Positions 3,002-50,254 of a DNA stretch of 64,000 bases are shown here, in pieces. Both the position numbers and the translations under genes were made by a program. The stretch's first letter is position 1; each line of letters starts with the position of its first letter. The notes beneath the pieces are model-generated. The model saw only the letters and a program-made list of their open reading frames with translations, had not been told where the DNA came from and did no database searches. Source of the DNA: an uncultured bacterium (GTDB lineage Bacteria > Verrucomicrobiota > Kiritimatiellia > CAIKKV01); the NCBI GenBank assembly GCA_938038445.1, contig CALHRZ010000017.1:12065-76064 (forward strand), in the 5' to 3' direction.

Positions 3002-3039
3002 AAATAAATTAACCGGGCCGCCGAAACCGTTTCCGGTCT

Positions 3040-7452: not shown

Positions 7453-7459
7453 CCGACGC

Positions 7460-10328: not shown

Positions 10329-10792
10329 GGCCTCTTCTCCCGCTCGAACCATTGTGTTCCCAGAGTGGTCACCACCCGGACATTCCGAAGAATGGTCACT
10401 TCGGTTCCGCCATTCTGCCACCGAAGTCCTTCCCCCGTCATTTGAAGTCCCGCACGGGTGACGCGAACTTCGCTCTCGGAAGTCATGCGCCCCGTCCGGA
10501 CATTGTAAAGACACTCCGCCGTCCACATTGTCATGCTCATCCGCCCTTCCTCATACACTTCCACACGGGCGTCGTAAAGGCGAATGAACGCCCCCTCCTT
10601 GACCGCCCTCTGTCCGTACAGTTCCGCCTTGAGTCGCCCCCCCTCGTCATAATGCGGCAAACGAAATTGCTCAAAGGTCATCGGCCCCGTTCCGGCTTCG
10701 GGAACGCGGATTTGGGCACGGGCGGCTCCCAAGACAACCCAAAGGCCAACCCCGGTCGCCAAAAGCCCTTCCCTAACCGGCCACAATCGCAT
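10325..10792 (-). CDS. LptC-like LPS export periplasmic/anchor protein
   Basis: The 155-aa product has an N-terminal hydrophobic anchor (LLATGVGLWVVLGAARA). It lies directly upstream of lptA-lptB, and the start overlaps lptA by 4 nt. The call rests on position and size. I did not see a sequence motif. Confidence 0.5.
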   Translation of the reverse strand: MRLWPVREGLLATGVGLWVVLGAARAQIRVPEAGTGPMTFEQFRLPHYDEGGRLKAELYGQRAVKEGAFIRLYDARVEVYEEGRMSMTMWTAECLYNVRTGRMTSESEVRVTRAGLQMTGEGLRWQNGGTEVTILRNVRVVTTLGTQWFEREKRP

Positions 10793-11597
10793 GGATCCTC
10801 CTAGCCTCTTCCCAAAGAGAGGGAAGGCGCTCAAATGGTAGGGAATTTTCTCGGTCCGACAGCGCCTTCTCAGGCGTCAAATAGGTTTCAAGAAAGAGGG
10901 CATCGCAGGCACCCGTGGCCACTGCAGCACGGGCCAGCGCCGGCGCCCATCGCCCATCTCCCCCCGAATGATCACCCGCTCCACCCGGCCGTTGCACACT
11001 GTGCGTTGCGTCGAAAATAACCGGATAGCCCAGGTCACGAAGCACAAGCAGGCTCCGCATGTCCGCCACAAGATTATGATAACCGAACGACGCCCCACGC
11101 TCCGTAGCCAGAAGACGGCGGTTGCCGGCGCTCTCGGCTTTTGCAAAGACCGCCGCCATATCCTCCGGCGCGAGAAATTGCCCTTTCTTAACGTTCACCA
11201 CCCGGCCCGTTTTCGCCGCAGCCACAATCAGATCGGTCTGCCGGCAAAGAAAAGCAGGAATCTGAAGAATATCGGCAACCGCAGCCGCAGCTTCCACGTG
11301 AATGGTTTCGTGAACATCCGTCAAAATCGGCACGCCGAATCGTGCCTTAACCTCCGCAAGAATCGCCAAGCCTTGCTCAAGTCCCGGCCCGCGAAACGAA
11401 GCGCCCGACGTCCGATTGGCTTTGTCATAACTGGCCTTGAAAATAAGAGGAACCCCCGCGCGACGGGCCCAATCCGTCAACGCCTGCGCCAATTCCAGAC
11501 AATCCTCCCGGCTGGAGATGACACACGGCCCCGCCACAAGCGCCAAAGGCCGGCCTTTCCCGATTTCAATTGCACCGATCCGAACGGTGAGCATCAC
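10773..11597 (-). CDS. kdsA: 2-dehydro-3-deoxyphosphooctonate aldolase (KDO-8-phosphate synthase)
   Basis: 274 aa. The N-terminus is IGAIEIGKGRPLALVAGPCVIES-like, and the family motifs are FKASYDKANRTS and VIFDATHSVQ. Confidence 0.85.
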   Translation of the reverse strand: MMLTVRIGAIEIGKGRPLALVAGPCVISSREDCLELAQALTDWARRAGVPLIFKASYDKANRTSGASFRGPGLEQGLAILAEVKARFGVPILTDVHETIHVEAAAAVADILQIPAFLCRQTDLIVAAAKTGRVVNVKKGQFLAPEDMAAVFAKAESAGNRRLLATERGASFGYHNLVADMRSLLVLRDLGYPVIFDATHSVQRPGGAGDHSGGDGRWAPALARAAVATGACDALFLETYLTPEKALSDRENSLPFERLPSLWEEARRIHAIVAG

Positions 11598-17697: not shown

Positions 17698-18210
17698 ATG
17701 AAGAACAATCAAGAGAATACACCCGAACTGCCGGACCCCTCCTCTCTCGTGCGCTTCATGCAAATGGCCCTGCAGGAGGCCAAGGCGGCAGCGGAAGAAG
17801 GCGAGGTGCCGTGCGGCGCAGTGATCGTTTGGAGTGGCCGCATCATTGGACGTGCCCATAATCAAGTGGAAACCCTGCGCGACCCCACGGCACATGCCGA
17901 AATACTGGCCATCACGCAGGCCGCAGGAGCGATCGGTGACTGGCGGCTGGACGGGGCAGATCTTTACGTCACCAAAGAACCCTGTCCCATGTGTGCAGGC
18001 GCTCTCGTGCTCGCGCGCGTCCGACGGTTGATCTTCGGCGTGCGAGATCCGGTCCGCGGAGGAGCAGGGTCGGTATTTCCCATCGTGTCGCATCCGTCCT
18101 CCCCGCACCGACTGGAGATTTTGGAAGGCATCCTCGAAGCCGAATGCAAAGCAATCCTTCAGACCTTTTTCCGCCGCCGCCGCCAGGAAGAAAACGAAAG
18201 GCCCTCTTAG
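17698..18210 (+). CDS. tadA: tRNA-specific adenosine deaminase
   Basis: Start is MKNNQ (ATG at 17698, verified). The deaminase zinc motifs are HAEILA and PCPMCAGAL. The ORF-track start at 17407 is an extension over the ffs locus. Confidence 0.85.
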   Translation: MKNNQENTPELPDPSSLVRFMQMALQEAKAAAEEGEVPCGAVIVWSGRIIGRAHNQVETLRDPTAHAEILAITQAAGAIGDWRLDGADLYVTKEPCPMCAGALVLARVRRLIFGVRDPVRGGAGSVFPIVSHPSSPHRLEILEGILEAECKAILQTFFRRRRQEENERPS

Positions 18211-19700
18211 CCGAACCGAATGACAAACTCCTCCTCTTTCGAGGGTTCGGGCGGTTTCTCTTCAACCTTAATCGGCTGATAGGTCGGAAGAAACCGATAG
18301 TAAACGGTCAACATGAGGCAGTTGAGCGCCGTGCAATACACCGGACCGAAGATCGCTTCCGATGAGGCCGGGGCCGGCCCCCAGCTCCCATCAGGATTTT
18401 GCATCGCACAAAGGGTAGGCGCAAATTGACGGTTCCAGGTGACCCATGTCGTCCCGCCCTGATGAAACCGAGCCTGCGTCACGTAATACCAGGAATAGAT
18501 GGGCCAGGCTCCCATCTGCCGCAAATCGAGATTCGGCGTGGCCGGATCGGTTTTGGTCCAACGAAACGGCACGTTCTGAAGCGCGCGCACCCCCGCCCGG
18601 GCTTCCGCATCCATCGCATGCCCCGTCAACTGCATGCACAGAACCGCCACACCGGTCATAGGAACATTGGGCGCCGCATGCCGTTCCCGCGTGCTGTACC
18701 GGAAAAAACCGGAACTGTTGTCAAACAACACCGTCAATCCGCGTATGCCCGTATCAATGGCCGCCCGCAAACCCCGATTTTCCGCTCCCGCATTCAAAGC
18801 GGCTTCCAATGCCTGAAGATGCCAGCCCGCTAGAGAAACGTCCATATGAGCCTCGGGCCCCCGCGCATACCCATAGTCCCAACTGCCCCCCTCATGTTGC
18901 CCATCGAGAATCACCTGAACGGCATCTTCCATCGCGATGCGTAGGTAGGGAATCCCGGTCAGCGCGTAAGCCTCGCTGATCGCATACGTCGCGATGGCAT
19001 GCTCGTAACAGTGAATCTGAGACGGCGCCTGAGCGGGACCCCACTGCGGCCCGCCGGAACGGAACCACCCGTCCTTCTGAAGCCGCAGCAGATAGCGGAG
19101 CCCCCGTCGAATCGCATCGCCAAATTCCGGCGAAGCCGTCGTCTCGCCATGCGCAAGAAACGCCAGCAGGGCCAATCCCGTCATGCTGGCCCGATAGTGG
19201 GGCCCCCAACTGCCATCCGGATACTGATGATCGCGAAGCCATCGGAGCGCCTTGAGAACCGCAATCTCCGTCCGTTCCCCCAACCCGCCGCTGTACTTGG
19301 CCAGCCCTTCCGCTCGCCCGGCAGCGCTACGCCCCGCGATAATTCCGCGAAACTGAACGGGCGAAACAGACTCGAGCATGTTGAATTCCGAAAGATCCAT
19401 CGCCTCACCCGCCGTCCCCAGGACGTCGACAGCCGGTGGCTCCTGATCAAGACTCACGGTCGGCGGAGTCACCACATCTACAGTCTGGGGGAGATCCTCG
19501 AACTTTTGTAGCTCCTCGGTCAACTTTTCCAACTCCTCCATCGGAGTCGGCTCAATCACAATCGCCTCGATCCCCTCATCGGTTCGAGGACGTTCAAACT
19601 GCACGAAGGTCGCCAACAATAGGAGCACTATCAAGTGAATGACGATGGAACCGGTCGGCCCCCAGAGATTGTCGATAATGCGTCTGACTCTCCAGTCCAT
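18207..19700 (-). CDS. Membrane-anchored prenyltransferase/squalene-cyclase-repeat (alpha-alpha toroid) protein
   Basis: 497 aa. It has an N-terminal TM (IVIHLIVLLLLATFV), an acidic linker, and repeated QW-like motifs (YPDGSWG, NPDGSWG, HEGGSWDYG) typical of terpenoid-cyclase/prenyltransferase repeats. It lies last in the TPR-exbB-exbD-exbD module. Confidence 0.6.
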   Translation of the reverse strand: MDWRVRRIIDNLWGPTGSIVIHLIVLLLLATFVQFERPRTDEGIEAIVIEPTPMEELEKLTEELQKFEDLPQTVDVVTPPTVSLDQEPPAVDVLGTAGEAMDLSEFNMLESVSPVQFRGIIAGRSAAGRAEGLAKYSGGLGERTEIAVLKALRWLRDHQYPDGSWGPHYRASMTGLALLAFLAHGETTASPEFGDAIRRGLRYLLRLQKDGWFRSGGPQWGPAQAPSQIHCYEHAIATYAISEAYALTGIPYLRIAMEDAVQVILDGQHEGGSWDYGYARGPEAHMDVSLAGWHLQALEAALNAGAENRGLRAAIDTGIRGLTVLFDNSSGFFRYSTRERHAAPNVPMTGVAVLCMQLTGHAMDAEARAGVRALQNVPFRWTKTDPATPNLDLRQMGAWPIYSWYYVTQARFHQGGTTWVTWNRQFAPTLCAMQNPDGSWGPAPASSEAIFGPVYCTALNCLMLTVYYRFLPTYQPIKVEEKPPEPSKEEEFVIRFG

Positions 19701-19712
19701 GCGCGTCCCCCG

Positions 19713-20123
19713 TCAGTTCATGCTCCCTACGGAAATGTTGGTCAATTTGGAGCGGGCGCAAAGATCAAGCACTTCCACCAGTTCCCGGTGCCGCGAATCG
19801 ATCGAACAGAGGATCATAACCGTCTGTTTTGGGTTCAACGCACCCAGTTGGCCCAGAATCTTCGCCAGTCCCGTCATGTCCACTCCGGAACCGTTGATCA
19901 GAACACCGCCTGGAAAAATTTCGATCTTGATCATGGGCGGCGGAGGGGTTTCGCTTTCCTGAGGTTTGGCGGACGGACTGAACACGTCAAGATGAGCAAA
20001 AACATCCACGGGCCGAATGGTCAATACGAAATAGATGAGGAGTTGAAAGACGACGTCAATCATCGGCGTCATCGAAATCTCCCCCGACTCTTCGCTCTTG
20101 CGCCTTTTCCTGAAATCGGCCAT
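19713..20123 (-). CDS. ExbD/TolR family biopolymer transport protein
   Basis: 136 aa. The N-terminus MTPMIDVVFQLLIYFVLT is the canonical ExbD TM region with its conserved Asp. Confidence 0.8.
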   Translation of the reverse strand: MADFRKRRKSEESGEISMTPMIDVVFQLLIYFVLTIRPVDVFAHLDVFSPSAKPQESETPPPPMIKIEIFPGGVLINGSGVDMTGLAKILGQLGALNPKQTVMILCSIDSRHRELVEVLDLCARSKLTNISVGSMN

Positions 20124-20138
20124 TTCCCGTCCTCCCTT

Positions 20139-20561
20139 TTAATTCGAAGGCGCCTTTTCTTTCAATGCCACGAAGGATACGCGGTACAGCCCCGCCTTTC
20201 CCGCCGCCTGCATCGCCCGGCGGACGAACTCGTGACGTGTGGACTGGTGGGCCCGAATATGGACCGGCGTATCCTGCCGCCCAGCGATCCGGGCCTGGGT
20301 CAAAACCGTCACCAACCGCGCTTCAGAAAGGCGGTTTCGGGCAATGGAAATCGTACCGTCCTCATGCACCTCCACGTAAACCGTCCGCGGATCCCGTTTC
20401 TCGACGGTAGGCCCATGGGGCGAACGGGCCAGGACAATCGTTTCGTCGAAAGCCTGGCGGTCGAGCTCCACGGTCACTACAAAGAAAATGATGAGTTGGA
20501 AGACGATGTCAATCATCGGCGTCATGTTGACGCCAACCTCTTCGGTGGACCGTTTGGCCAT
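20139..20561 (-). CDS. ExbD/TolR family biopolymer transport protein
   Basis: 140 aa. The N-terminus is MTPMIDIVFQLIIFFVVT. It is a paralog of the adjacent exbD. Confidence 0.8.
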   Translation of the reverse strand: MAKRSTEEVGVNMTPMIDIVFQLIIFFVVTVELDRQAFDETIVLARSPHGPTVEKRDPRTVYVEVHEDGTISIARNRLSEARLVTVLTQARIAGRQDTPVHIRAHQSTRHEFVRRAMQAAGKAGLYRVSFVALKEKAPSN

Positions 20562-20601
20562 GACCGTCTCCCCTTCGGCACCCGATCGGGTGCGTTTTCA
20601 G

Positions 20602-21438
20602 TTACTCCTGAACAACCTCGACGTTCCGCAGCGTCTTGATGAGATCGTTCGTCAGGATCACCATGCTCAAAATGATGTTGTTGGCACGGTTGCGGAAAAA
20701 ATAAAAGAAAGCCACGGCGGGAACCGCCACCGAAAGACCGGCGGCCGTCGTGTAGAGCGCCTGGGAGATGTTCTGCGCAAGGAGCGCCTGCTGGGCGGCA
20801 CCGGCTTGCTGCGTTCCAAGGGTCGCAAACGCATAGATCATTCCTTGCACGGTTCCCAGAAGCCCCAGCATTGGGGCCAGGTTGGAGACAACGGAAAGAT
20901 AGGAAACCTTCTGAAGCAGCCTTTCGCTCTCCAAATCCGCAACCGCATTGATGGATTCCTGAATCACGTCGAATCCTTCTTCCACATTTTCAAACCCGGC
21001 GCGCAGAATGTTGGACAAAACCGTCGGCTCCTCCTTGCAGTACTCCAACGCCTTCCCAAGGTCCCCCTCATTCATCGCAGTCCTGACTTTCTCCAGAAGC
21101 GGAGCCGGCATGATCTTGCTCGGCCGGATTTTGACGAACGAATCGATAATCAGGTAGATGCCGGCCAGTGAAGTGGCGAAAAGGCCGGCCCAGAGGAGAA
21201 TTCCCAACGCGCCGCTCCCGGTCACCACATCCCAGAAGTTTGTGGCGCCTGCTTGCTGCTCTGCCTGCGTTTTGCGGGCGGCCGCCTCTTCCGCCGTCAT
21301 GGTTTCCTGGGCAAACGCCGATCCAGAACCGATGATGATCCAGCCTGCCGCGATGGCCGCCACGGCGGCCCGTTTCCACTGTCTGCTCATGGTGTCGACT
21401 CCTCGTTTCAACCGCTCAAGTCCGATGCTCGCCCGCAA
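20602..21438 (-). CDS. MotA/TolQ/ExbB proton-channel family protein
   Basis: A putative signal-peptide-like N-terminus is followed by three TMs and the conserved ExbB C-terminal region (APMLGLLGTVQGMIYAF...TTAAGLSVAVPAVAFFYFF). An alternative start is at 21390. Confidence 0.8.
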   Translation of the reverse strand: MRASIGLERLKRGVDTMSRQWKRAAVAAIAAGWIIIGSGSAFAQETMTAEEAAARKTQAEQQAGATNFWDVVTGSGALGILLWAGLFATSLAGIYLIIDSFVKIRPSKIMPAPLLEKVRTAMNEGDLGKALEYCKEEPTVLSNILRAGFENVEEGFDVIQESINAVADLESERLLQKVSYLSVVSNLAPMLGLLGTVQGMIYAFATLGTQQAGAAQQALLAQNISQALYTTAAGLSVAVPAVAFFYFFRNRANNIILSMVILTNDLIKTLRNVEVVQE

Positions 21439-21440
21439 CT

Positions 21441-22250
21441 TCAGGATCCCTTTTCCAACCGGGTTTTCGCTCGCACTCCAAACTCAGACTCGGGATATTG
21501 CCCGGCTTGCCGATAAAATTCAAGACTCTGTTCCGGTTTCCCCATCCGCTCCAACGTTTCGCCTGCTCGCCAGGCGGCTTCCGGAACCCATTCACGTACC
21601 TCCCGAAAAAACCGAGCGGTGCGCATAAAATCGAACAAACCCCCTTCGATATCGCCATTCTCAAGGCGTACGCGCCCCCGAATAACCTGGGCCGCAGCGG
21701 CTTCCCGCCGCGTCCCCTTGCGGACCATCTCGTCCAACAACGGATCCAGCCGATCCCGGCGTCCCAACCCCGCCAGCGATCGGGCAAGGCCGACCCTCAT
21801 CGCTTCATCACTCGTCAGATCGGCCGCACCTTCCGACGCCGCATCCAGGTTCCGGATCGCCTCGTCCCAGCGTCCGATCTCGACGTGGCAAAGGCCCATA
21901 TATTTCAACGCCTTTAGATCCCAACCCAAAAAGCGATACTGCTCCACAATTCCCTGAAGCAGACGGATGGCTTCGTCGTATTCCTTCTTCCGCATCCGTT
22001 CCAGCGCCTGACCCATGGCCACAGGTTCGTCCATGATTACCCGGGTCCCTTTCGGGTATTCCAGCCGGGCACCCTCCGGCAGGATGAGTATGATCGTACC
22101 ATCCGCCGCCGCACGAACCTCGCGGCCCTCCACCCGGCGTCCGTCAGGCAACACCACGATAGGATTTCCAGCCCATACCCCTTCCCAGGCTCCCTCCAAA
22201 CCCAAAGCGAACACCGCAAACGCCTGCGCGGCCAACCGTCTCACCCTCAT
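21441..22250 (-). CDS. TPR-repeat protein (secreted)
   Basis: 269 aa. It has an N-terminal signal-like segment and TPR-like helical repeats (EYDEAIRLLQGIVEQY...WDEAIRNL). An ATGA overlap joins it to the upstream TPR gene. Confidence 0.6.
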   Translation of the reverse strand: MRVRRLAAQAFAVFALGLEGAWEGVWAGNPIVVLPDGRRVEGREVRAAADGTIILILPEGARLEYPKGTRVIMDEPVAMGQALERMRKKEYDEAIRLLQGIVEQYRFLGWDLKALKYMGLCHVEIGRWDEAIRNLDAASEGAADLTSDEAMRVGLARSLAGLGRRDRLDPLLDEMVRKGTRREAAAAQVIRGRVRLENGDIEGGLFDFMRTARFFREVREWVPEAAWRAGETLERMGKPEQSLEFYRQAGQYPESEFGVRAKTRLEKGS

Positions 22251-25200
22251 GATCCTGAACCTCCCGTGGTTCGGCGCAGAATAGCTTCACTGCGCCACCG
22301 GCGAACCTCCTCGGCACCCCCCGCGTGGGGAAATTCCGAGGTAAACCGGTTGGCGTTTTCGACCACATCATCCCAACGCCCACCCTCCCGGAAGAGACGA
22401 ACGCTTTCATAAAGCGCCTTTTGGTAAAAGGGGCGAATGACCGGATCATCCGGTTTGCTCAAGAGGACAATCCGCTGGTAGGACGCAAGGGCTCCGTCTC
22501 GATCGCCCTGGGCAAGCTGGAGTTCAGCAAGTTCCGTGGTCGCCCGGGTAATCAACCGCTGATCGGTCGCCCGCAAAAAGACATCGCGCAAGACCTCGGT
22601 CGCCTCCTTAAGGCTTCCGGCGCCACGTAACGCCCGTCCAAGAAGGAAACGCGCTTCAAAGAAAAAGGGCGACCGCGGATACTCTTCGATTAGCCGACGC
22701 AACGCTTCAGCCGCTTCCGCCGGCCGATTGAGCGCCAGACGGGATTGCCCTAGCGCCATAAGGACACGCTGTTCCACATCCCCGCGCCGAACTCCCTCGG
22801 TCAGAGCATCCATCCGCTTGAGGGAAGCCTCAAACGCTCGAGCAGCCGCCTCGTGACGACCGCGATCTTGAAACAGAATTCCCGCTCGAAGAAATTGATC
22901 GGCCGGATAGCGGTCCGCCTCCCGAAGCATTTCCTGCAATACCTCCTCCGCCTTTTCCAACCGCTGAATCTCAATCAGACTCCTCAGCATGGCAAGCCGG
23001 GCGTTCTGACCGGCTTCCGACTGGGGATACTGCGTCGCCAGCTCTTGGTAAACCGCAGCCGCCTCATCCGAACGCCCTTCCACCAGCAGGATTGCGCCCA
23101 TCGTGCTGAGCGCGGTCGGCGCAAGCGTCGATTTCGGATAGGTTTCCACAAACCGGCGAAGATGGGCAATCGCTTCCTTACGGGATGCGGCGCCGGCCTC
23201 TCCCGCCCCCGCCATCAACATCTTGCAATATCCAAGATAGAAAAAGGCTTGCTGGTGGATCTCCTCATTCTTGCGCAACGCCTCAATAGATGTACTAAAC
23301 GCCCCACCTTTGTTATCCAGCCAACCCGTCAACTCCGCGTAATGTTGAAAAGCGTCCGCATAAGCGCCCATCTGGCGGTAGGCATCGGCCAGACAAAGCT
23401 TCGCCTGAGCCTTTTCCGTCCCCGCCTGCGCATCCGCCAGAAAGCGGGAGAACCCCTCGACCGCCCGGGGAAAATCACCCCGTAAATAATAAGCCCACCC
23501 GATCCGGTTGAGGGATTGGAGATAGCGGGGGGTCTTCGTGTACCGCTCGACGAGACGCCGGTAATAGACAACGGCACCCTCGTAATCCTCCACTTTCCAA
23601 CGCTGCTCCCCTAACATGAACAGAATTTCAGCCGCACTCGGATGCTCCGGAAACCCTTCCAGATAGCGCTCGTAGAGAAAGAGATAGAGATCCCGATTGT
23701 TTTGCTCGAAGAAATAACGGCCCACCCGAAGAAAAGCCTGGGCCGCAAGGGGATTGCCTCCAAACCGTTCCGCAAGATACTCCGCCGTGACCCGCAAACT
23801 CAACAGATCGCTCACCCGAGCATAACATTCGAGCAGATTCCCCAGCGCCGCAAGAGGCTCTTCTCCCTCGGGAAAATCATTGAGCCCTTTCAAATACTGC
23901 TCAATTGCTTTTTCGTACTCTTTCCGGCTGAACAAATTGTGCCCCTCGCGAAGCACAACGCGGGCGATTTTCTCCCTGCCCCCTTCCCGCGCCTCGATCG
24001 TAACCTCTTTTCCCGTGAGTTCCTTCACTCGGCTCTTGATGCGATCAATCGCTTCCCCCGCATTTTGACTCCAATCCGTCCCCGGATAACCGGAAAAAAC
24101 CCCGTAATAACGCCGAAGCGCTTCCGCATAATGCGAGAGGGCCAATTCCAGCCGTTTTTCCTCCAAGGCGACGTGATTCCGTCCGCGTTCCATCTCCACA
24201 AAACCCGCAAACTTCTCGCCCGGCAACAGGTCGGGCTGGGGAGAAACCCCATGCTTTTTGTCGAAGGAGTCTGCCGTCTGAATCAGTTTCTGAACCCGTT
24301 CCTTGAGTTTATTCTTCCGGTCCGCGACGGCGGGCGTCCATCCGTCTCCGCTTTCCAACTCCAAAAGGACACGCTCGAATTGGCGAGCGCTTTCGAGAAA
24401 ACGGAGAAATGGTTCCTGCCGCGCCTCGGGGGTTCCAGGCAACGTCACAGTCGTTTTTTCCTTCGCGGCCCGATCCAGGATCGCCGCGTCCCGCTGGGCA
24501 ACACGGGCGATCAGGCTCCAGAGTTCTTCAAATTCACCTGCCGCGCGTTCCAGAAACCGAAGGGCTTCCGCTTCCCGCACCTCACGGGAGGCCGTTAAAA
24601 AATCTCCACGGTCCTTATGAATCCGCCCCAAAAGGCTGAGCGCGCCGGCATAAGGGCTCTCGGAAACCAACCCCGCTTCGGACAGCCGTTCATCCAGTTT
24701 CCGAAGCATCTCCATGTTCTTGTTGAGAAGCGCGATCGCCTTGTCTTCATTCCCCTCCAACAATTCCACATGCGCCAACGCAGCAACGGCTCGGCCGAAC
24801 CAAAGGTCCATGCCTCCCCAAACAACCTCGTCACTGTTCGCCCGCGCCTTGCGAATTAAAGACTCCCGTTCCTTGCCGGCCGGAAGGCCACGGGCCGCTC
24901 GCAGAAGAAGTTCGGCCTGCTCCAATTTGAGTTGCCGAAGAGCGTCCCGATCGTCCGGCCCCAGCAGGGGAAAAATGCGGTCGTACATTCCGGCGGCAGC
25001 AAGGGGATCGTTGGCCATCGCCAACATCTGAGAAAACTTGTATGCGGCATCCCGAAAAAAGCGCCGAACATCTGGATCGGTCGGAACGGCATTCGTGTGC
25101 CGATTGAAGAAATCCGCATAGATCGCGCGGGTCTTTTCACGCTCGCCTGCCATGAAATAGCCGTCCGCGAGCGCAAGAAGGATCGCCTGCGCTTTGGGAC

Positions 25201-25522
25201 TATCCTTGGGAACCGTAGCCAACAACTCCTCGGCCTGACGGAAACGACGCCGTTCAATCATCGCCTCCGCTCGAACCACCGTCGTCCGCTCCCGAAGGGT
25301 CGGATACTCCATCTCAATCCGATCCATGACCCGTTCGGCCAGATCGGGCATCTTAAGTTTGTGGATCAGGCCGGACGCAAACTCAAACTCTCGCTCCAAA
25401 AGAGGGTCGGCGATAGAACTCCCCGCAGGCGCCTGCTGACCATGCAACGGGACCGCCAGAACGATCGCAAGCGAAAGCAGAAGAAGCCCTCTGCGCATTC
25501 TTCCGCCGTTTCCGTTCTGCAT
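22247..25522 (-). CDS. Giant secreted TPR-repeat protein (1091 aa)
   Basis: It has an N-terminal signal peptide (LLLLSLAIVLAVPLHGQQ) and more than 20 TPR-like repeats throughout. It lies first in the module. Confidence 0.65.
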   Translation of the reverse strand: MQNGNGGRMRRGLLLLSLAIVLAVPLHGQQAPAGSSIADPLLEREFEFASGLIHKLKMPDLAERVMDRIEMEYPTLRERTTVVRAEAMIERRRFRQAEELLATVPKDSPKAQAILLALADGYFMAGEREKTRAIYADFFNRHTNAVPTDPDVRRFFRDAAYKFSQMLAMANDPLAAAGMYDRIFPLLGPDDRDALRQLKLEQAELLLRAARGLPAGKERESLIRKARANSDEVVWGGMDLWFGRAVAALAHVELLEGNEDKAIALLNKNMEMLRKLDERLSEAGLVSESPYAGALSLLGRIHKDRGDFLTASREVREAEALRFLERAAGEFEELWSLIARVAQRDAAILDRAAKEKTTVTLPGTPEARQEPFLRFLESARQFERVLLELESGDGWTPAVADRKNKLKERVQKLIQTADSFDKKHGVSPQPDLLPGEKFAGFVEMERGRNHVALEEKRLELALSHYAEALRRYYGVFSGYPGTDWSQNAGEAIDRIKSRVKELTGKEVTIEAREGGREKIARVVLREGHNLFSRKEYEKAIEQYLKGLNDFPEGEEPLAALGNLLECYARVSDLLSLRVTAEYLAERFGGNPLAAQAFLRVGRYFFEQNNRDLYLFLYERYLEGFPEHPSAAEILFMLGEQRWKVEDYEGAVVYYRRLVERYTKTPRYLQSLNRIGWAYYLRGDFPRAVEGFSRFLADAQAGTEKAQAKLCLADAYRQMGAYADAFQHYAELTGWLDNKGGAFSTSIEALRKNEEIHQQAFFYLGYCKMLMAGAGEAGAASRKEAIAHLRRFVETYPKSTLAPTALSTMGAILLVEGRSDEAAAVYQELATQYPQSEAGQNARLAMLRSLIEIQRLEKAEEVLQEMLREADRYPADQFLRAGILFQDRGRHEAAARAFEASLKRMDALTEGVRRGDVEQRVLMALGQSRLALNRPAEAAEALRRLIEEYPRSPFFFEARFLLGRALRGAGSLKEATEVLRDVFLRATDQRLITRATTELAELQLAQGDRDGALASYQRIVLLSKPDDPVIRPFYQKALYESVRLFREGGRWDDVVENANRFTSEFPHAGGAEEVRRWRSEAILRRTTGGSGS

Positions 25523-25583
25523 ATATCCACCCTTTCCTTGCCTTTTTATCCGATCGGCACGATTGTTTCAAGTAAAACCTTGC

Positions 25584-27395
25584 TCATTTCGGAACCTCCC
25601 CGCCGAAATTGATCGCCATATACTGGGTAAAGGCATAATAGATGATGTTCACCCCCAGTTTGTAAGCCTGGCTGGCCACGGACTCGGAAGCGCCGGAATG
25701 GCCCGTCTTCCAGGCATCGTTGATATCCCCCTGGTGGTAGAATACAACCCAGCGCCCCTTGTACTTGACCCCCAGCGCTTCCTTGCCGGAGTGATGCCAA
25801 AGAGGGGGCGCTCCGTTGGGGAAATAAAAGGGATATTGGAAGATCACGTCATCCTTGGAAATCACGACCAGAGGAAGATCGGGAAAGACCCGCCGCAACA
25901 TTGTCCGGAAACTCCGGTCGAAATTCCCTCCCCCATTGTCCGCAAAGAGCATCCCTCCCATTTCCAGGCAATACTCCCGAAGAATGTTGACTTCCGACTG
26001 GGAGAGATTGATGCTCCCGCGCAACCCGCCGGTGATATAGACAAAAGGCGGAGCTCGATTCTTTGGAAAACGCTTCAACTGGTGGATGCGGATGGACTCC
26101 GTGTGAGGCCAGATGTCAAAACCGGTAAATTCCCGAAACTTGAGAAGCATGTTGTAATCGGCGCCAAATCCCATGTCCTGATCCCAGTCTCCCCCGTCGT
26201 ATTCCAGACGAATAAACCGGACCCTTGCCCGCTCCATTCCGTTCGGCCACCCCCCTTTCTTCCCGCCTCCCGCCCCGAGCTTGCCGAGCTGCTGCGCTTC
26301 GTAAGTCTGTTCGGTCTGGCGATCGATCTCTTCCAGCACCTCGCTGTCCTCGATGCGGGGTATATAAAAGGATATGGGCGCATTCAGGTTGATAATGAAC
26401 TTCTTTTCCGGCTTCTTCTGAATCCGCCGGACCTTGATCATCTCGATCATCGGCGTTCCGCTGCCTTGCGGAATCCCATACGGCAGTTCCATGCATCCCC
26501 ACCGAAACGCGATCAGGGGGAGAATAAAAATGAAGAAAAGGTGCAGCAGAGAGGAAAGATAGAGCGATTTCCTAAAGGGAGGATCCTCTCCGTGACGGCG
26601 GAGGTTGTCCCAAAGCCAGTCCGCCCAACCCGGTTGTTCCCCCTTCCGCCCGTACCAAGCGCCCGTCCGACAAAGCCATAGCGCCATGGTAAAAGCCGCC
26701 ACACCAACGATCCACGGCAGCACCCGTATCGTGCCCCAGGTCCAAAGTTCATTGCGTACCGTATTCCCATAAGCATCCGGTTGAAAGCGGCGGAGGAGCG
26801 AAGGAATCACCAGAACCCACCGCCAGATCAGGAGAAAGTAGAAAACCAGGGCAAGGGCAACCCCGCGCAGAAAAACAATCACCCCAGGGCGACGATAAAA
26901 CGACGCCAACGCCGCCAAAGGAAGAAGGACCATCAAAACGCCGGAAAAGACCGCCAGAACCCCATAGAACCCTCCCCAACTTTCCCACGGAAGGGTGTTC
27001 AGTGTCGGAACATCCATGTCCAGCAAATGGGCCAGCGCCGCCACGCCGTAACCGGTCACCCGAGAAGGAAGCCAGGCAACCCCAACGAAAAGAATCCCGA
27101 TCACGCACGGGGGAGTGACCCAACGAAGAGACTCCTCCCCAACCGTTCGACACCACGCCCGAAGACGAAGAAAAATTGGCGAAAAAAACCCTTGCAGCAG
27201 AATCGCGGTCCTAAGAGCGAGCTCACGTATCCTTCCCGCCAACGGACGAACTCGTACGGTCGCGAGAGAGAACAGGGCCATCAGGCCGTCATCCACCCGG
27301 CCTGGAAGACGCACCAAAGTCCGAATCGGACCGATGCGCCCGATTCGGTAGATCCATCTCCGCCCTTCGAACCTCACCCGGCCCCCCTTGATCAA
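25584..27395 (-). CDS. Polytopic membrane protein with C-terminal DUF4159-like domain
   Basis: 603 aa. The N-terminal half has many TMs. The C-terminal ~200 aa (VYITGGLRGSINLSQSEVNILREYCLEMGGMLFADNGGGNFDRSFRTMLRRVFPD...KGRWVVFYHQGDINDAW) resembles DUF4159. The match is from memory and not searched. An ATGA overlap joins it to the upstream gene. Confidence 0.55.
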   Translation of the reverse strand: MIKGGRVRFEGRRWIYRIGRIGPIRTLVRLPGRVDDGLMALFSLATVRVRPLAGRIRELALRTAILLQGFFSPIFLRLRAWCRTVGEESLRWVTPPCVIGILFVGVAWLPSRVTGYGVAALAHLLDMDVPTLNTLPWESWGGFYGVLAVFSGVLMVLLPLAALASFYRRPGVIVFLRGVALALVFYFLLIWRWVLVIPSLLRRFQPDAYGNTVRNELWTWGTIRVLPWIVGVAAFTMALWLCRTGAWYGRKGEQPGWADWLWDNLRRHGEDPPFRKSLYLSSLLHLFFIFILPLIAFRWGCMELPYGIPQGSGTPMIEMIKVRRIQKKPEKKFIINLNAPISFYIPRIEDSEVLEEIDRQTEQTYEAQQLGKLGAGGGKKGGWPNGMERARVRFIRLEYDGGDWDQDMGFGADYNMLLKFREFTGFDIWPHTESIRIHQLKRFPKNRAPPFVYITGGLRGSINLSQSEVNILREYCLEMGGMLFADNGGGNFDRSFRTMLRRVFPDLPLVVISKDDVIFQYPFYFPNGAPPLWHHSGKEALGVKYKGRWVVFYHQGDINDAWKTGHSGASESVASQAYKLGVNIIYYAFTQYMAINFGGEVPK

Positions 27396-28426
27396 AGCTT
27401 GAGTTCAATATCAGTAGGCCGGGGCGTTTCGCCCGGCACGGGAAGCGTCTCCCATTCCTGGGTGGACGAAGGAGCCACCGGCGAAGGCGGGGGAGACGTA
27501 GCCGGGGTCGCGGGAATCGGCGCCGTCACGGTGCCCGTTTCCGCGCCCGCCGAACCCGGCGGCGCTTGGGTGACCGATCCGCCCGTCGCAACCGCAGCTG
27601 TCGGAACTTCCGGTTCAGGTTCTTTCGGCCGGATGCGCCGATACAAATATCCCAAAGAGGTCAATCCGAGAACCACAAGATGTATCGCAACCGCCGCCCG
27701 CAAAAAGCGGGCAAACGAAACCTTGCGAAGATCGGACATGGCCACGTCCGCACGAGCGGCCTCCGATTCCCAGTCGATCTCACCCCCGCGCTTCAGAAGG
27801 TCCCGTTCTATGGCGGCGGCCGACACATTCTCCCCGGCAGGAGCCGACGCCCGTTCCCGGAGTTCTTGCTCGAGGCGAGTGATGACGGCTCGCGCCGCCT
27901 CAAGTTCAGCACGGGACTGCGCCGTCCATTCCAGCCGCTGCCGTTCCATGTCCTCCGCATGCCGGGTCTGAACAGACGCCAATTCCCGTTCCGCGCGCTC
28001 CAGACGCAAACGCGATGTCTCAAGCAAGGTTTCGAGTTCCTTGATGCGCTCGGACAACAAGCGAATTTCAGCCTCTTTCCGATCCAACCGTTCCTTCCAA
28101 ACCCGATCCTCACCTGAAACTGAAGAGGACGACAACGCGGAAACCGGAGGCGGAGCCGGCGCAGGCTCTTTCGTTTCCGGCGACGGTGAAAGGGGCGCGG
28201 CCGCAGATTTCGAAGGCTGCTCGGTCATCGCCGCATCCGCAGGAAATGACTTCACCGGCGCCGAAGGGGCAGGAGCTTCGCCCGACATGCGACCGGCAGG
28301 TTCCGTCTCGGTCGGAACAGGCGTCTTTTTGGCGCACCGGGGACAAAGAATGGTCTTTCCCGCAAAGGTTTTGAGCACTTTGAGGGCCGCCCCGCATCGA
28401 GCACAAGAAAAAGCAATCGTATTCAT
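27392..28426 (-). CDS. Zinc-ribbon / coiled-coil / single-TM / Pro-rich protein (candidate TonB/TolA-like coupling protein)
   Basis: Start is MNTIAFSCARCGAALKV...CPRCAKK (CxxC...CxxC zinc ribbon). A long heptad coiled coil follows (EIRLLSERIKELETLLETSRLRLERAERELASVQ), then one TM (AVAIHLVVLGLTSLGYLY), then a Pro/Thr/Ala-rich C-terminus. The ATG at 28426 is verified, and an ATGA overlap joins it to exbD. Confidence 0.55.
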   Translation of the reverse strand: MNTIAFSCARCGAALKVLKTFAGKTILCPRCAKKTPVPTETEPAGRMSGEAPAPSAPVKSFPADAAMTEQPSKSAAAPLSPSPETKEPAPAPPPVSALSSSSVSGEDRVWKERLDRKEAEIRLLSERIKELETLLETSRLRLERAERELASVQTRHAEDMERQRLEWTAQSRAELEAARAVITRLEQELRERASAPAGENVSAAAIERDLLKRGGEIDWESEAARADVAMSDLRKVSFARFLRAAVAIHLVVLGLTSLGYLYRRIRPKEPEPEVPTAAVATGGSVTQAPPGSAGAETGTVTAPIPATPATSPPPSPVAPSSTQEWETLPVPGETPRPTDIELKL

Positions 28427-28830
28427 TGTCCGGATCCCGTCTTTTCGCCGATCAGAACCAGTTCCGCCTCGGATTGGGCCAGGGCGGCGAGCACCCGACC
28501 GAATTCGCGATACCGCCGATCCCGATCCATTTTCAAATACACCCGCCGGTCCTTCCGGTCGCCAAGTAAGGAGGACACCAGCGGCTCCAGCGCATCCAAC
28601 GCGCATTCTTCACCCTGCACCCACAGCCGGCCTTGTTCGTCCAGAACCACGCTGAGGGGTGCCTGCTCGAGAATCTCGATATCGGGCGATTCGGGCGGCC
28701 GGCTTTTAATATGCGCCTCCTTCATGAAGACCGACGCCAGCACAAAGAAAATGATGAGCTGAAAAGCAATATCGCCGAAGGATGTGAGGGGAAGAAGGGG
28801 TTGGCGGCGCCGTCTGCGGGCAATCTTCAC
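28423..28830 (-). CDS. ExbD/TolR family protein
   Basis: 135 aa. The ExbD-like TM is LTSFGDIAFQLIIFFVLASVF. Confidence 0.75.
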   Translation of the reverse strand: MKIARRRRRQPLLPLTSFGDIAFQLIIFFVLASVFMKEAHIKSRPPESPDIEILEQAPLSVVLDEQGRLWVQGEECALDALEPLVSSLLGDRKDRRVYLKMDRDRRYREFGRVLAALAQSEAELVLIGEKTGSGQ

Positions 28831-29300
28831 GAGCCCTCCTTTCCGCCGCCTCCGGAGGGAGGTGAACCCGATGCCCCCCCGCCTCCCTCTCCGCTTTCGG
28901 CGCTTTCCACAAGGGCCAGGATTCCACCCTCGCGGGCAATCGCGGTCACCACCTTGTAGTAGCGATCGTAATCCACGTCAGGAGCGCACTCTACGATCAA
29001 AACCCGCTCGCTCTCAGAACGTTCCCGCAGCTTCATCTGTTTCAGCGCCTCGCGGAACTCTTCGATCGTAAGGGTTTCCTCCTTGAATTGCAGCGTCTCC
29101 GCCGTCAGAGCAACAGTGGGGTATTCCTCCTCCGGTTTCTGGGACTCCTCCTGCGTGCTGGCCGGGATCATGACGGAAACCCCCATGCTTTTGGAAAAGG
29201 TCGTCGTCAGAATGAAGAAAATGATCAGAAGAAACGCGACGTCGGCAAAGGAGGTGACGTCCACGTCTCGGAATTCACGGGGTTTTCGCGCAATACGCAT
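28827..29300 (-). CDS. ExbD/TolR family protein
   Basis: 157 aa. The TM region is VTSFADVAFLLIIFFILTT, and the C-terminal tail is Gly-rich. Confidence 0.75.
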   Translation of the reverse strand: MRIARKPREFRDVDVTSFADVAFLLIIFFILTTTFSKSMGVSVMIPASTQEESQKPEEEYPTVALTAETLQFKEETLTIEEFREALKQMKLRERSESERVLIVECAPDVDYDRYYKVVTAIAREGGILALVESAESGEGGGGASGSPPSGGGGKEGS

Positions 29301-29317
29301 CGGAAAAGCCAGGAATT

Positions 29318-29956
29318 TCAGTCCCGCAAATGCAAAAAGTTAACGAGTTCGTTGGCCGAATCTTCGATCGCGATCGTCAGTTGTTCAACGCGATTGACAA
29401 AGAGGTTGTAGGCAATGACCGCCGGGACCGCGATCAAGAGCCCTGCCGCCGTGGTAATCAACGCCTCCGAGATGCCGGCCGCCACATCGCCGCCTTGCAG
29501 AGTGCCGCCCGCCTTGGCCATTTCGTTGAACGCCTTGATCATACCCGTAACCGTTCCCGTCATGCCAACCAGCGGCGCCGTACTGCCCACCAGCAGCAAC
29601 AGCCCGACCCGTTTCTCCAATTCCGCCAACACATGCGGCGCATAATCCTCCATACATTTGGAGACACTCGCTTCGATTTCCGCTTTCTGTCGCCTCAGCG
29701 CCATTAACGCCCGGTAGCGATTGAGCCCCGCAAGCAAAATCGCCGCCACAGGACCTTTGGTTTCTTCACATAAGCGGATCGCTTCGTCCACCTTGCGCTC
29801 CGCGAGCAATTGCAAAACCATGCGCCGGAGCAATGAGGTATCCCGGCTGGCGGTCGCCAAAACCCTCCAGCGCTCCAAAATCACAGCCAGTCCGGTGATC
29901 GAAAGAGCGAGCAACACCCACATCAGGGGGCCGCCGTCGAGCATGAATTTCAGCAT
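29318..29956 (-). CDS. MotA/TolQ/ExbB proton-channel family protein
   Basis: 212 aa. The three-TM topology ends in the conserved region LVGMTGTVTGMIKAF...ITTAAGLLIAVPAVIAYN. Confidence 0.8.
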   Translation of the reverse strand: MLKFMLDGGPLMWVLLALSITGLAVILERWRVLATASRDTSLLRRMVLQLLAERKVDEAIRLCEETKGPVAAILLAGLNRYRALMALRRQKAEIEASVSKCMEDYAPHVLAELEKRVGLLLLVGSTAPLVGMTGTVTGMIKAFNEMAKAGGTLQGGDVAAGISEALITTAAGLLIAVPAVIAYNLFVNRVEQLTIAIEDSANELVNFLHLRD

Positions 29957-29973
29957 GGGACAGAACTCCGGAG

Positions 29974-32139
29974 TTATCGGTTAATCAGTTCCAACACCTT
30001 GTGCGCCTTGCCTGCAGCGACACTGTTCGGATAATCGCGAATCAGGGCGGTCAGTTTTTCGCGGGCTTCATTCTGCCGGCCAAGGCGGACCAGGACCACG
30101 CCCCATTTCAGGAGCATTTCGTCCAGGAAGGGGGCATCAGGATAATCCTGAAAAACGGTTTGAATCATCTCCAGACAGCGGGCGTAATCTCGTGCTTCCA
30201 GGTGGAAGTCGATCACCTTGCCCAGCGCTTCCCCGGCAAAAGGCGAATCGGGATACTGCTCGGCCACGGAGCGGTAAGCCGCAATCGCCTGCCCCAAGGC
30301 GCGCAGGCGTTCTTCTCGGCTGAGATTGGATCGGATGCTCTGCTCCAGTGTCTGCGCCAGCAAAAATTGGGCCTCCGCCTTCAGATCGGGGGATGTCTTG
30401 AGCCCCAAAATGCCACGCAGGAGTCCCGCGGCTTCGTTCGGCTTTCCCGCGTTGAGATAAGCCCGTGCAATCTGCATCATCGCCACATCGGCCAGCGAAG
30501 AAGTGGGAAAAAGCGCCATGAGCTGGCGGCAGGTGGCGATCGCCCCGCTCAGATCGTCCTTGGCAATCTGAAGTTCCCACTTCAACTGATAGGCCTCTTC
30601 CACCAGTTCGGGCGGAAGCGAGGCGCGGGCATACCGCCGGAGCACATCCTCGACCTTTTCCAACCCTGTATCCGCCTTTTCATGCGACCGAGCCATCAAT
30701 CCCACATCCTTGAAAATCTGGGCTAATCGAAGATAAAACTTGGCCTCCGTCACATTTTTGCGGGCCCGCAGCACCTCCGTCGCCACCTCCCGTTGCGCCA
30801 CCATGACGTCGGGAATCTCGCCGGCCAGAAATTCCGCGCGAGCTGAAACCAAACGCGGTTCCTTCCGGCTCCCAATGTGTGCCTTGTCCTCATATTCGAG
30901 AAAGATGATGTCTTTCTCCGCCGCCGATAGAATGCTGTCAGCCGTGTTCAAGGGCTGGCCTTCCTCCCATTTCTGAATGTTCAAGGTTCCCGTAAACACT
31001 CCCGTCATCGGCCCGCTCTCCCGAAGCGTCAAAGAGAGGCTGTCCCGATCCAATAACTCCTCCACTTCCAACGCAGCCGCCGTTTCCTCGCGCGGGGCCG
31101 GGTAGCGGGCAATAATCCGTACCACGACCGTGTCCGGACCGTCGGTGACATCGGCATCCAAGTCCTTGACCCGAAGAAACGCCGGTTGGCCGACAAAAAG
31201 ACCTCGCACATATTCCCGGTAGGCACCGTCCGTAAAGCCTGCCACGGCCGTCGAAACAGTCCGCGCAAAGGCTTTGCGCTCCACGTTTCGCCCCCCGTCC
31301 TGCGTGTTGGCATCCAGATAGGAAACCGTAATGCGGTCCCCGCCGCGCACTTCCAGAATGCCGTTGGTCGCCACCGCCTTTCCTTGTTCCATTCGGATGC
31401 TGCCCAAATAGAACTCCCCCTCTGCATCAAAGGGTTCCAGCGTCAAACGTTCCCGATCGCCCGAATCGGTTGTGACCGTGACTTCCAACGGGCGGCCCGC
31501 GATTTTGAGAACACGCAGGTCCTTGTCCTGAATCTTGACAAAAAACCGCTGCCCGGCTTCGACAAGGGACTCCTCTTCTCCTTCGTTAGGAGGAACGCTG
31601 GTCCCAACCATTTTGAGGGCTTCAACCGCCTGTCGCCACCGTTTCAACTGGAAATGGCACAGTCCAATATAATAGTAGGCTTCGTTGGCAAAAACGCTCC
31701 ACGGATACTGGTCCGTCACCTTCCGCAAGGTCGAAAGGGCGCGGGGATAATCCCCCAATCCGTAATGAGCGATCCCCATGCGGTAGAGCGCCTCCGCCTT
31801 TTCGTCCGGTCCCGCATCTTCCGCATCCAGCACCGGCTGAAGATTCTTGAGCGCGAGGGCGAAATCGGGCCTGTTCTCGGTGTAATACCGCCCAATTGCC
31901 AGCCAGGCCTGGAGCCGAACGGGCGATTTGGGAAAGGTGGCGGGAATCGAGGCCAACACCTTGAGCCCGCGCTCGTCCTGCCGGTCTTCAATCAGGGCAA
32001 GCCCCTGCCGGAATAACCGCATCGCCGCCGGGTCGCCCGCGCCGGAAGAATCGGTCGGCGTCTGCTGGGCCCTGCCGGCGGCCCCCGCCAGCAGCCCTCC
32101 GATTGTTACTGCCGCCATCACCATCGTTTTCCACTTCAT
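29974..32139 (-). CDS. Secreted TPR-repeat protein (~720 aa) with central beta-rich region
   Basis: It has a signal peptide (MVMAAVTIGGLLAGAAGRAQQ). TPR blocks sit at both the N- and C-termini, flanking a non-TPR middle of about 250 aa. Confidence 0.6.
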   Translation of the reverse strand: MKWKTMVMAAVTIGGLLAGAAGRAQQTPTDSSGAGDPAAMRLFRQGLALIEDRQDERGLKVLASIPATFPKSPVRLQAWLAIGRYYTENRPDFALALKNLQPVLDAEDAGPDEKAEALYRMGIAHYGLGDYPRALSTLRKVTDQYPWSVFANEAYYYIGLCHFQLKRWRQAVEALKMVGTSVPPNEGEEESLVEAGQRFFVKIQDKDLRVLKIAGRPLEVTVTTDSGDRERLTLEPFDAEGEFYLGSIRMEQGKAVATNGILEVRGGDRITVSYLDANTQDGGRNVERKAFARTVSTAVAGFTDGAYREYVRGLFVGQPAFLRVKDLDADVTDGPDTVVVRIIARYPAPREETAAALEVEELLDRDSLSLTLRESGPMTGVFTGTLNIQKWEEGQPLNTADSILSAAEKDIIFLEYEDKAHIGSRKEPRLVSARAEFLAGEIPDVMVAQREVATEVLRARKNVTEAKFYLRLAQIFKDVGLMARSHEKADTGLEKVEDVLRRYARASLPPELVEEAYQLKWELQIAKDDLSGAIATCRQLMALFPTSSLADVAMMQIARAYLNAGKPNEAAGLLRGILGLKTSPDLKAEAQFLLAQTLEQSIRSNLSREERLRALGQAIAAYRSVAEQYPDSPFAGEALGKVIDFHLEARDYARCLEMIQTVFQDYPDAPFLDEMLLKWGVVLVRLGRQNEAREKLTALIRDYPNSVAAGKAHKVLELINR

Positions 32140-32155
32140 GGGCTTGTTGCTCCGC

Positions 32156-33982: not shown

Positions 33983-33983
33983 G

Positions 33984-50194: not shown

Positions 50195-50254
50195 GAGCAT
50201 ACCGAGGGTTTAAAGATTGACCCCTTTGTCTTCAATTTCTACCATGAAGTTCCG

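Follow-up and report, generated by a model that had tools for sequence, protein, structure and literature searches.

The transducer proteins TolA and TonB share a three-domain layout consisting of a transmembrane (TM) helix with the SHLS motif, a disordered spacer containing a strand called the "motor box," and a globular head (PMC12204202). A recent study searched genomes lacking a recognizable TolA or TonB, including that of the kiritimatiellote Tichowtungia aerotolerans, and found transducers made up of an SHLS-motif TM helix, a disordered linker that includes a motor box, and a head of the von Willebrand factor A (vWA) type (Mol Biol Evol 2025; PMC12204202). In Tichowtungia and other bacteria of the Planctomycetes-Verrucomicrobia-Chlamydiae (PVC) group, these vWA transducers sit behind the genes TPR-tolQ-tolR-tolR; the Tichowtungia locus carries two of them, and in the supplement to that study, TolA and TonB N termini from many phyla show S-x3-H followed by a strand, the S-x3-H pattern being visible in the vWA transducer of Tichowtungia as well (PMC12204202). 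Here we describe a six-gene locus, module B, in which a 497-amino-acid (aa) protein with an α/α-toroid head occupies the corresponding slot. It lies in a stretch of 64,000 nt (the window; GC ~59%) from an uncultured bacterium of the Kiritimatiellia (contig CALHRZ010000017.1), with all genes of interest on the minus strand.

The closest published system is the vWA-transducer family of PVC bacteria (PMC12204202). Like module B, it is found in Kiritimatiellota and other PVC bacteria and combines tetratricopeptide repeat (TPR) and motor genes with a His-bearing TM helix, a motor box, and a head other than that of TonB. The module B head, however, is an (α/α)6 toroid with no Pfam match to vWA, and module B is further set apart by its pair of TPR genes and by the conserved acidic peptide that follows the head at the C terminus. 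The 497-aa gene shares with tonB and tolA the slot after exbD/tolR, a single TM helix of the form S-x3-H-x6-L, and a motor-box-like strand. Its spacer is acidic, not Pro-Glu/Pro-Lys or helical, and the protein has no Pfam or NCBIfam match to TonB_C (PF03544) or TolA_C (PF06519) at E <= 0.01. Because this defining C-terminal domain is absent, the protein, judged on its sequence, falls outside the TonB/TolA family proper, and the likeness lies in the anchor, the layout, and the probable mode of action. Module B also departs from Ton and Tol in having two different ExbDs instead of one, and its operon contains no gene for a TonB-dependent transporter, TolB, or Pal. Neither the vWA study nor its supplements mention a head of the toroid, terpene, or prenyl kind (PMC12204202), and a full-text literature search (ExbD with squalene-oxidase repeat, Pfam pairs, and Kiritimatiellota with ExbB, ExbD, or TonB) found no description of a toroid linked to such a motor. 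An earlier note on this DNA had stated that prenyltransferase-repeat proteins are not known partners of ExbBD, and the literature search, which turned up no paper linking the two, agrees; the novelty it saw in the accessory protein holds for the toroid head, which is apparently undescribed, but not for the principle of a non-TonB head behind TPR-tolQ-tolR-tolR, published in 2025 for vWA (PMC12204202).

From the sequence and the predicted structure, we consider it likely that the 497-aa protein is a motor-coupled, TonB/TolA-like force transducer with a toroid head and not an enzyme. This reading is based on its anchor, its three-domain layout, its operon slot after exbD, and the lack of conservation of catalytic motifs. 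We propose that module B as a whole is a self-contained six-gene operon for a trans-envelope machine driven by the proton motive force (PMF). It consists of six intact, uninterrupted open reading frames (ORFs) running from 25522 down to 18207 on the minus strand, with short gaps or 4-nt overlaps:

22247..25522, minus strand: secreted TPR protein, 1091 aa, matching several Pfam TPR families, with a signal-peptide-like N terminus (MRRGLLLLSLAIVLAVPLHG).
21441..22250, minus strand: secreted small TPR protein, 269 aa, matching Pfam TPR_12, TPR_6, and others, with a signal-peptide-like N terminus.
20602..21438, minus strand: ExbB/TolQ-type proton-channel subunit (ExbB-B), 278 aa, matching PF01618 MotA_ExbB (2.3e-26, 92.5 bits, above the gathering score).
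20139..20561, minus strand: ExbD/TolR-type subunit 1, 140 aa, matching PF02472 (5.5e-21, 75.4 bits, above the gathering score), membrane Asp kept (MIDIVFQLIIFF).
19713..20123, minus strand: ExbD/TolR-type subunit 2, 136 aa, matching PF02472 (3.8e-17, 63.0 bits, above the gathering score), membrane Asp kept (MIDVVFQLLIYF).
18207..19700, minus strand: 497-aa protein with a TM anchor and an (α/α)6 toroid head (alignment, AlphaFold2 model, and structural neighbors).

The gene content that the earlier note had assigned to this region (two TPR genes, exbB, two exbD genes, and the 497-aa gene) was confirmed in full at the level of both ORFs and domains. The 1091-aa TPR protein lacks a lipobox Cys after its signal peptide, and its C-terminal half carries CpoB/YbgF-like and BamD-like TPR repeats (TIGR02795, 137 bits over five stretches; NCBIfam). 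The start of the 269-aa gene overlaps the stop of the 1091-aa gene by 4 nt, and the 497-aa gene begins 12 nt past the second exbD. In NCBIfam, ExbB-B scores best with TolQ (75.7 bits, versus 45.5 bits for ExbB), both scores being far under the equivalog cutoffs. Its true start is probably Met17 (nt 21390), giving 261 aa, as called in the close relative L084. Ahead of its first channel helix, ExbB-B has in residues 1 to 60 a stretch resembling a signal peptide (AAVAAIAAGWIIIGSGSAFA-QE) as well as a periplasmic extension of acidic character, reminiscent of the "long ExbB" class; the ExbB of the neighboring module A (ExbB-A, 212 aa) has no such extension. The two ExbDs of module B are only 28% identical to each other (pairwise BLAST), which suggests that they form a heterodimer. 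The module thus has the components of the MotA/ExbB/TolQ-ExbD/TolR 5:2 motors, one PF01618 subunit and two PF02472 subunits with the membrane Asp, the presumed stoichiometry being that of the family. Downstream, module B runs up against a convergent tadA, followed by dnaX. A scan of 17900-26000 found no promoter-like sites, and terminator-like sites in that interval were at chance level (16 versus 11.7 ± 3.2).

We divided the 497-aa protein into segments using a family alignment of 36 members (43 to 91% identity, mean column identity 53%) and an AlphaFold2 model built on 36 homologues:

19602..19661, minus strand: residues 14-33, motif GPTGSIVIH and TM helix; proposed motor-docking helix, equivalent to TonB S16/H20/L27.
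19548..19574, minus strand: residues 43-51, GIEAIVIEP strand ~22 residues past His22; proposed "motor box" equivalent contacting ExbD.
19341..19601, minus strand: residues 34-120, acidic Pro/Val-containing disordered periplasmic linker (domain II); predicted local distance difference test (pLDDT) score <50 for residues 34-59 and 69-120.
18291..19328, minus strand: residues ~125-470, single (α/α)6 barrel or toroid, predicted periplasmic (AlphaFold2, structural neighbors).
18210..18290, minus strand: residues 471-497, YYRFLPTY, an acidic stretch, and a terminal strand (alignment and the C-terminal tails of 76 loci); predicted disordered, with pLDDT <50 for residues 483-497.

AlphaFold2 models the N-terminal anchor as a helix. 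G14, P15, G17, and H22 are invariant in all 36 aligned members, position 18 is S, T, or A, and the consensus residue at +7 from His22 is Leu. Among locus proteins from species-representative genomes, GPxG[S/T/A]xxxH is present in 76 of the 78 that could be assessed (S in 67, T in 7, and A in 2). Three of the four SHLS positions are therefore kept in the family. When the family N terminus was compared by hhalign with nine TolA and TonB N termini, S18-A30 lined up residue for residue with TonB S16-L28 (P = 4e-4), as against P = 7e-3 and a probability of 5% for a control with the sequence reversed. The N terminus of Escherichia coli TonB reads ..LLSVCIHGAVVAGLL..PISVTMVTP, with the strand ISVTMVTP, and that of E. 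coli TolA reads ..IISAVLHVILFAAL..SIDAVMVD, with the strand IDAVMVD. The strand that follows the TM helix in the toroid family alternates hydrophobic residues (consensus VEVxxxEP, also given as xIEVxVIEP; E45 is kept in at least 90% of the 36 sequences) and is visible in nearly all loci; by analogy with TonB and TolA, it may act as a motor box. The linker varies across the alignment and contains 14 Glu, 6 Asp, and 9 Pro residues among its 87 positions; the barrel domain is well conserved. At the extreme C terminus, the last strand is EEEFVIRFG here and DDVxIEI[L/I] in most relatives, and this C-terminal peptide is a candidate for β-strand addition or for binding to a TPR protein. The N-terminal TM helix claimed in the earlier note is in place (residues 17-35), as are the QW-like repeats, with DGSW at residues 162 and 437.

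The association of the toroid gene with the motor is conserved. A scan of one genome per species turned up 161 relatives. We examined 80 of their loci (from Kiritimatiellia, Verrucomicrobiota, and Lentisphaerae metagenome-assembled genomes [MAGs]) by tblastn with the window proteins, and 77 of these had enough upstream DNA to be informative. In 62 of the 77, the second exbD is found upstream at a distance of at most 400 bp from the toroid gene, usually preceded by the first exbD, exbB, the small TPR gene, and the large TPR gene, and the motor lies within 7 kb in five more, so that the proposed co-occurrence of this gene family with exbBD in related genomes is borne out. In four of these five (L046, L052, L062, and L079), a second toroid gene stands in between, its product alike in anchor, strand, and C-terminal tail; these tandem toroid transducers after the second exbD (L046:7066-8547, L052:8423-9919, L062:8236-9879, and L079:6583-8085) parallel the paired vWA transducers of Tichowtungia. 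The fifth has a variant order, ExbB-ExbD-ExbD, then the two TPR genes, then the toroid transducer (L010:3333-11548). In the remaining 10 loci, five encoding anti-sigma-like paralogues and the others orphan toroid genes, the motor is not nearby, and nine of them (all but L083) are shown to keep the His anchor and strand. Orphan and multiple copies of this kind, with the anchor retained, are also seen among tonB paralogues that share one ExbBD. Near one orphan toroid transducer, L068:3951-6670 (minus strand) holds a small motor-like cluster in which a 521-aa membrane protein adjoins a pair of ExbD-like ORFs, each bearing a TM Asp (SFCDIITV and PFLDSLMIM).

An ortholog of the large TPR gene is found 5' of the motor in most related loci (tblastn), the place of the 269-aa TPR gene is likewise kept, and the order TPR-TPR-ExbB-ExbD-ExbD-toroid is maintained down to 38 to 44% identity. 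In L001 and L003 (41 to 44% identity), the same six genes stand amid unrelated neighbors (mutL, YkuD, and MFS genes), which argues that the six genes form an autonomous unit. A homology search with ExbB-B returned, among the matches listed, only close orthologues of at least 55% identity. At L001:1-1351, ~3 kb upstream of module B, lies a gene for a 1944-aa bacterial α2-macroglobulin, a protein whose thioester domain is likewise an α/α toroid; this proximity is probably coincidental.

In the proposed mechanism, the ExbB/TolQ-type subunit and a heterodimer of the two ExbDs would, to judge from family membership, form a 5:2-type inner-membrane motor, and this ExbB5-ExbD1/ExbD2 complex would turn proton flow into movement. 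The N-terminal helix of the 497-aa protein (His22, Ser/Thr at -4, and Leu at +7) would dock on the outside of the ExbB pentamer, like TonB and TolA, the conserved strand ~22 residues after His22 would touch the periplasmic domain of ExbD, and the acidic disordered linker of ~70 residues would cross the periplasm. The barrel, together with the acidic C-terminal peptide, would take hold of a target located in either the outer periplasm or the outer membrane, and this target would be pulled or remodeled. We infer this physical coupling to the motor, as we do the role of the two secreted TPR proteins, which may be periplasmic scaffolds or adaptors at the distal end, comparable to CpoB in Tol-Pal. 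Several observations weigh against a transducer of this kind. At +11, the fourth position of SHLS, the consensus residue is Val and Ser is not conserved; the hhalign match, taken absolutely, is weak, with a probability of 35% over 13 columns; and when the N-terminal 65 residues were searched as a profile against all PDB sequences, there was no match at E <= 10. The linker is short (~70 to 90 residues) and not classically proline rich. No gene for an outer membrane partner is present in the module B operon, and no TolB (PD40) or Pal (OmpA-like) gene is present in or beside the operon in the window, L001, L003, or L084. Finally, the closest structural neighbors of the barrel include epimerases and GH76, so that a catalytic role on a glycan is conceivable from the fold. 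The modest hhalign statistics reflect the shortness of the segment, and in our view, the invariant intramembrane His, as read from the alignment, is a stronger argument than the hhalign score.

As for the cellular role, we prefer Tol-like envelope maintenance, in a lineage reported to have no recognizable TolA or TonB, given the best score of ExbB-B with TolQ, the CpoB-like TPR units, and the lipopolysaccharide (LPS)/envelope neighborhood. Uptake in the manner of Ton, or the handling of a glycan, is less favored but conceivable. Module B thus shares with Tol-Pal a TolQ-best ExbB, CpoB/YbgF-like TPR units, and a setting in envelope biogenesis (lptFG, lptB-like, kdsA-like, and heptosyltransferase genes), but it has no TolB or Pal alongside, and its TPR proteins are much larger than CpoB. 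The neighboring envelope genes in the window encode an LptF/G permease (1928-3223), an ABC ATPase (lptB-like; 9094-9900), a DAHP_synth_1 protein (KdsA-like; 10773-11597), a Wzy_C O-antigen ligase-like protein (40618-42033), and a family-9 heptosyltransferase (49250-50200), all on the minus strand, and housekeeping genes in the surrounding region include metK, ahcY, ptsI, hprK, and nrdD.

The head itself raises the question of whether the protein could instead be a membrane-tethered periplasmic enzyme, either terpene-cyclase/prenyltransferase-like or a glycan epimerase or hydrolase, cotranscribed with the motor and acting on the same envelope polymer. The barrel is predicted to be periplasmic, since the single N-terminal TM helix is preceded by basic residues, and it is modeled with confidence (pLDDT mostly ~90 or higher over residues ~140 to 340 and 56 to 94 per 10-residue block toward its C-terminal end). 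As modeled, it has the α/α-barrel fold, together with the QW-like DGSW turns, of squalene-hopene and oxidosqualene cyclases (SHC/OSC) and prenyltransferase β-subunits, and its structural neighbors are mostly enzymes (SHC-like proteins, cellobiose and GlcNAc 2-epimerases, GH76, and AprG). Many aromatic and polar residues that are invariant in the barrel (W154, W165, H184, E243, D287, W293, Q296, W399, Y402, Y405, N423, and E448) could form the lining of a pocket, and there is a weak Pfam and NCBIfam likeness to squalene cyclases. These matches are all sub-threshold, with 22.8 bits against a cutoff of 26.1 for PF13243 (SQHop_cyclase_C), 28.4 against 322.7 for TIGR01787, and 21.4 against 431.1 for TIGR01507, and the 497-aa protein has no significant match to the family models PF13243, PF13249, and PF00432. 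SHC/OSC proteins have two barrels against one in the model here, and the 497-aa protein differs from them further in being TM anchored and predicted periplasmic. In the 36 sequences, catalytic motifs are not conserved (DxDD in 7, DDxxD in 2, and NSE/DTE in none), and there is no invariant or near-invariant Cys that could serve as a Zn ligand; just two columns are half Cys or more (26/36 and 21/36). Identity to any enzyme neighbor is at most 17%, and no one enzyme family stands out. Moreover, an enzyme would have no need of an invariant intramembrane His, a post-TM strand, or a fixed slot after exbD, and in anti-sigma factors and kinases, this barrel forms the extracytoplasmic portion, as is typical of a binding or sensor module. 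On balance, we regard an enzymatic function as distinctly improbable and the barrel as most likely a binding module, neither a terpene cyclase nor a prenyltransferase, as far as alignment and model can tell. The label of prenyltransferase/terpene-cyclase-repeat protein given to this gene by the earlier note fits the modeled fold and the QW-like turns, but as the name of an accessory enzyme, it is most likely the wrong reading, and the structure prediction that it called for, on whether an active site or only a scaffold is retained, returned a confident single barrel without conserved cyclase or prenyltransferase motifs. A thioester function like that of the α2-macroglobulin thioester domain (TED) was rejected because there is no invariant Cys. 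The function-unassigned "SHC-like" clade of the triterpene-cyclase literature is not this family either; its members are two-domain proteins of 550 to 700 aa.

The family to which the barrel belongs is very large and offers a further reading of the 497-aa protein. A word-indexed search found at least 1449 homologues, and an exhaustive search, with sequences clustered at 50% identity, found 17,125 clusters at E <= 1e-3, 5,278 of them at E <= 1e-30. Named homologues come from Kiritimatiellia, Verrucomicrobiota, Lentisphaerae, and one Marinimicrobia-labeled MAG, and public pipelines name relatives "terpene cyclase/mutase family protein." The barrel is also found fused to a zf-HC2 anti-sigma domain (P0219, confirmed by Pfam), a Ser/Thr kinase (P0218), and PD40 TolB-like β-propeller repeats (P0249 and P0251); P0218, P0249, P0251, P0161, and P0225 are much longer proteins in which the barrel is fused to kinase, PD40, DUF2135, and TED/prenyltransferase-like repeats. 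The five anti-sigma-like paralogues found in our scan (L028:9728-11416, L034:4314-6035, L059:~9644-11344, L074:~5948-7756, and L078:1879-4188) have an added N-terminal cytoplasmic domain (ELIEKYLDxLLxxxEL...) and still have the full GPxGSxxxH anchor, as well as the strand after the TM helix and the barrel itself. Directly upstream in L034 and L074 lies a gene resembling those for extracytoplasmic function (ECF) sigma factors. The cytoplasmic anti-sigma domains, the adjoining ECF sigma genes, and the zf-HC2 and kinase fusions, from which it appears that the barrel can feed signaling, all favor a protein that binds the motor without transducing force, such as a stator-anchoring or regulatory subunit (a peptidoglycan or glycan tether, or a gate) or a sensor of envelope status. 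The module B protein, however, has only ~13 cytoplasmic residues and no output domain, and the usual periplasmic anchoring domain is already supplied by the ExbDs. The paralogues themselves suggest motor-coupled anti-sigma factors; by analogy with the logic of FecA/FecR/TonB, His-anchored anti-sigma fusions may be better understood as TonB-like coupling added to signaling. We therefore think a nontransducing role for the module B protein unlikely, and a force transducer remains the reading that we favor.

Upstream of module B, after a gap of 61 bp with no convincing terminator, lies a second motor gene cluster, module A (25584..38567, minus strand), which falls outside the operon family of module B:

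33984-38567, minus strand: TPR protein, 1527 aa.
32156-34045, minus strand: TPR protein, ~605-629 aa.
29974-32199, minus strand: TPR protein, 741 aa.
29318-29956, minus strand: ExbB-A, 212 aa.
28827-29300, minus strand: ExbD, 157 aa.
28423-28830, minus strand: ExbD, 135 aa.
27392-28426, minus strand: 344-aa Zn-ribbon/coiled-coil/His-TM/Pro-rich protein.
25584-27395, minus strand: polytopic protein with ~5 predicted TM helices and a C-terminal DUF4159 (PF13709, 1e-30).

Genes called independently in L084 match these 14 in identity and order, tadA and dnaX among them, and in agreement with the earlier note, we saw no frameshift or other sign of pseudogenization in either module. All four ExbDs have the membrane Asp in their TM segment, and each module probably uses an ExbD heterodimer. 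The 344-aa protein starts at Met61 of a 404-aa ORF, overlapping the ExbD stop, and has a Zn-ribbon-like N terminus (CxxC...CxxC), a long coiled coil, and a His-bearing TM helix (AVAIHLVV); its periplasmic tail is Pro rich and lacks a globular head. It has one or two detectable homologues, the TM His being kept in P0388, and its sequence suggests that it may use a related docking principle.

Both modules follow the same logic, with TPR proteins, ExbB, ExbD, and ExbD followed by a membrane protein whose TM helix contains a His; they adjoin one another, and this adjacency is retained in the close relatives L006 and L084. In the earlier note, the two tandem modules with their different accessory proteins were seen as a dedicated machine that had been duplicated and had specialized. 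ExbB-A and ExbB-B, however, are only 28% identical, and the ExbDs align weakly between the modules (24 to 32% identity over partial lengths). The ExbBs of toroid loci elsewhere are 51 to 83% identical to ExbB-B and only 28 to 38% identical to ExbB-A. Module A stands directly upstream of B only in L006 and L084; in most genomes (e.g., L001), B has no adjacent A, and in L011, an A-type ExbB is found downstream instead. A recent tandem duplication was rejected on these grounds, and duplication and specialization of one machine is very improbable as an account of the two modules, so that the description is misleading. The low cross-module identities and the restriction of the adjacency to close relatives indicate a clade-specific juxtaposition. 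From these comparisons, modules A and B appear as two old, distinct systems whose adjacency is secondary, and any common origin, on the same sequence grounds, is ancient.

A wider view would make toroid transducers the main substitute for TonB and TolA throughout the Kiritimatiellia and their relatives, gripping a nonprotein ligand and constituting a third class of PMF-driven machine. The ligand on which the motor pulls might then be a glycan of the envelope, LPS or capsule, or a carrier linked to an isoprenoid, for example in polysaccharide capture and import, and the anti-sigma and kinase fusions would make the toroid module a mechanically gated sensor. The very large size of the family and the largely carbohydrate-active structural neighbors are compatible with such a substitution. 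K. glycovorans is reported to be without genes for TonB-dependent polysaccharide uptake, and SusC-like transporters are reported to be absent from these bacteria; Pontiella has some TonB-related genes. We hold this wider view to be unlikely.

For a motor-coupled toroid transducer, our favored reading, the implications are several. It would extend the recent proposal that ExbBD/TolQR motors drive transducers whose heads differ from TonB_C and TolA_C, with the toroid as a second, very abundant head type, and it points to a possible replacement of Tol or Ton functions in Kiritimatiellota. It would also explain thousands of "terpene cyclase/mutase family" and "prenyltransferase repeat" annotations, labels that would mislead metabolic and biomarker inference about terpenoids in PVC bacteria. 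Finally, the anti-sigma and kinase fusions that keep the docking anchor suggest a link between motor coupling and envelope signaling, which would be testable in cultured Kiritimatiella, Pontiella, and Tichowtungia.

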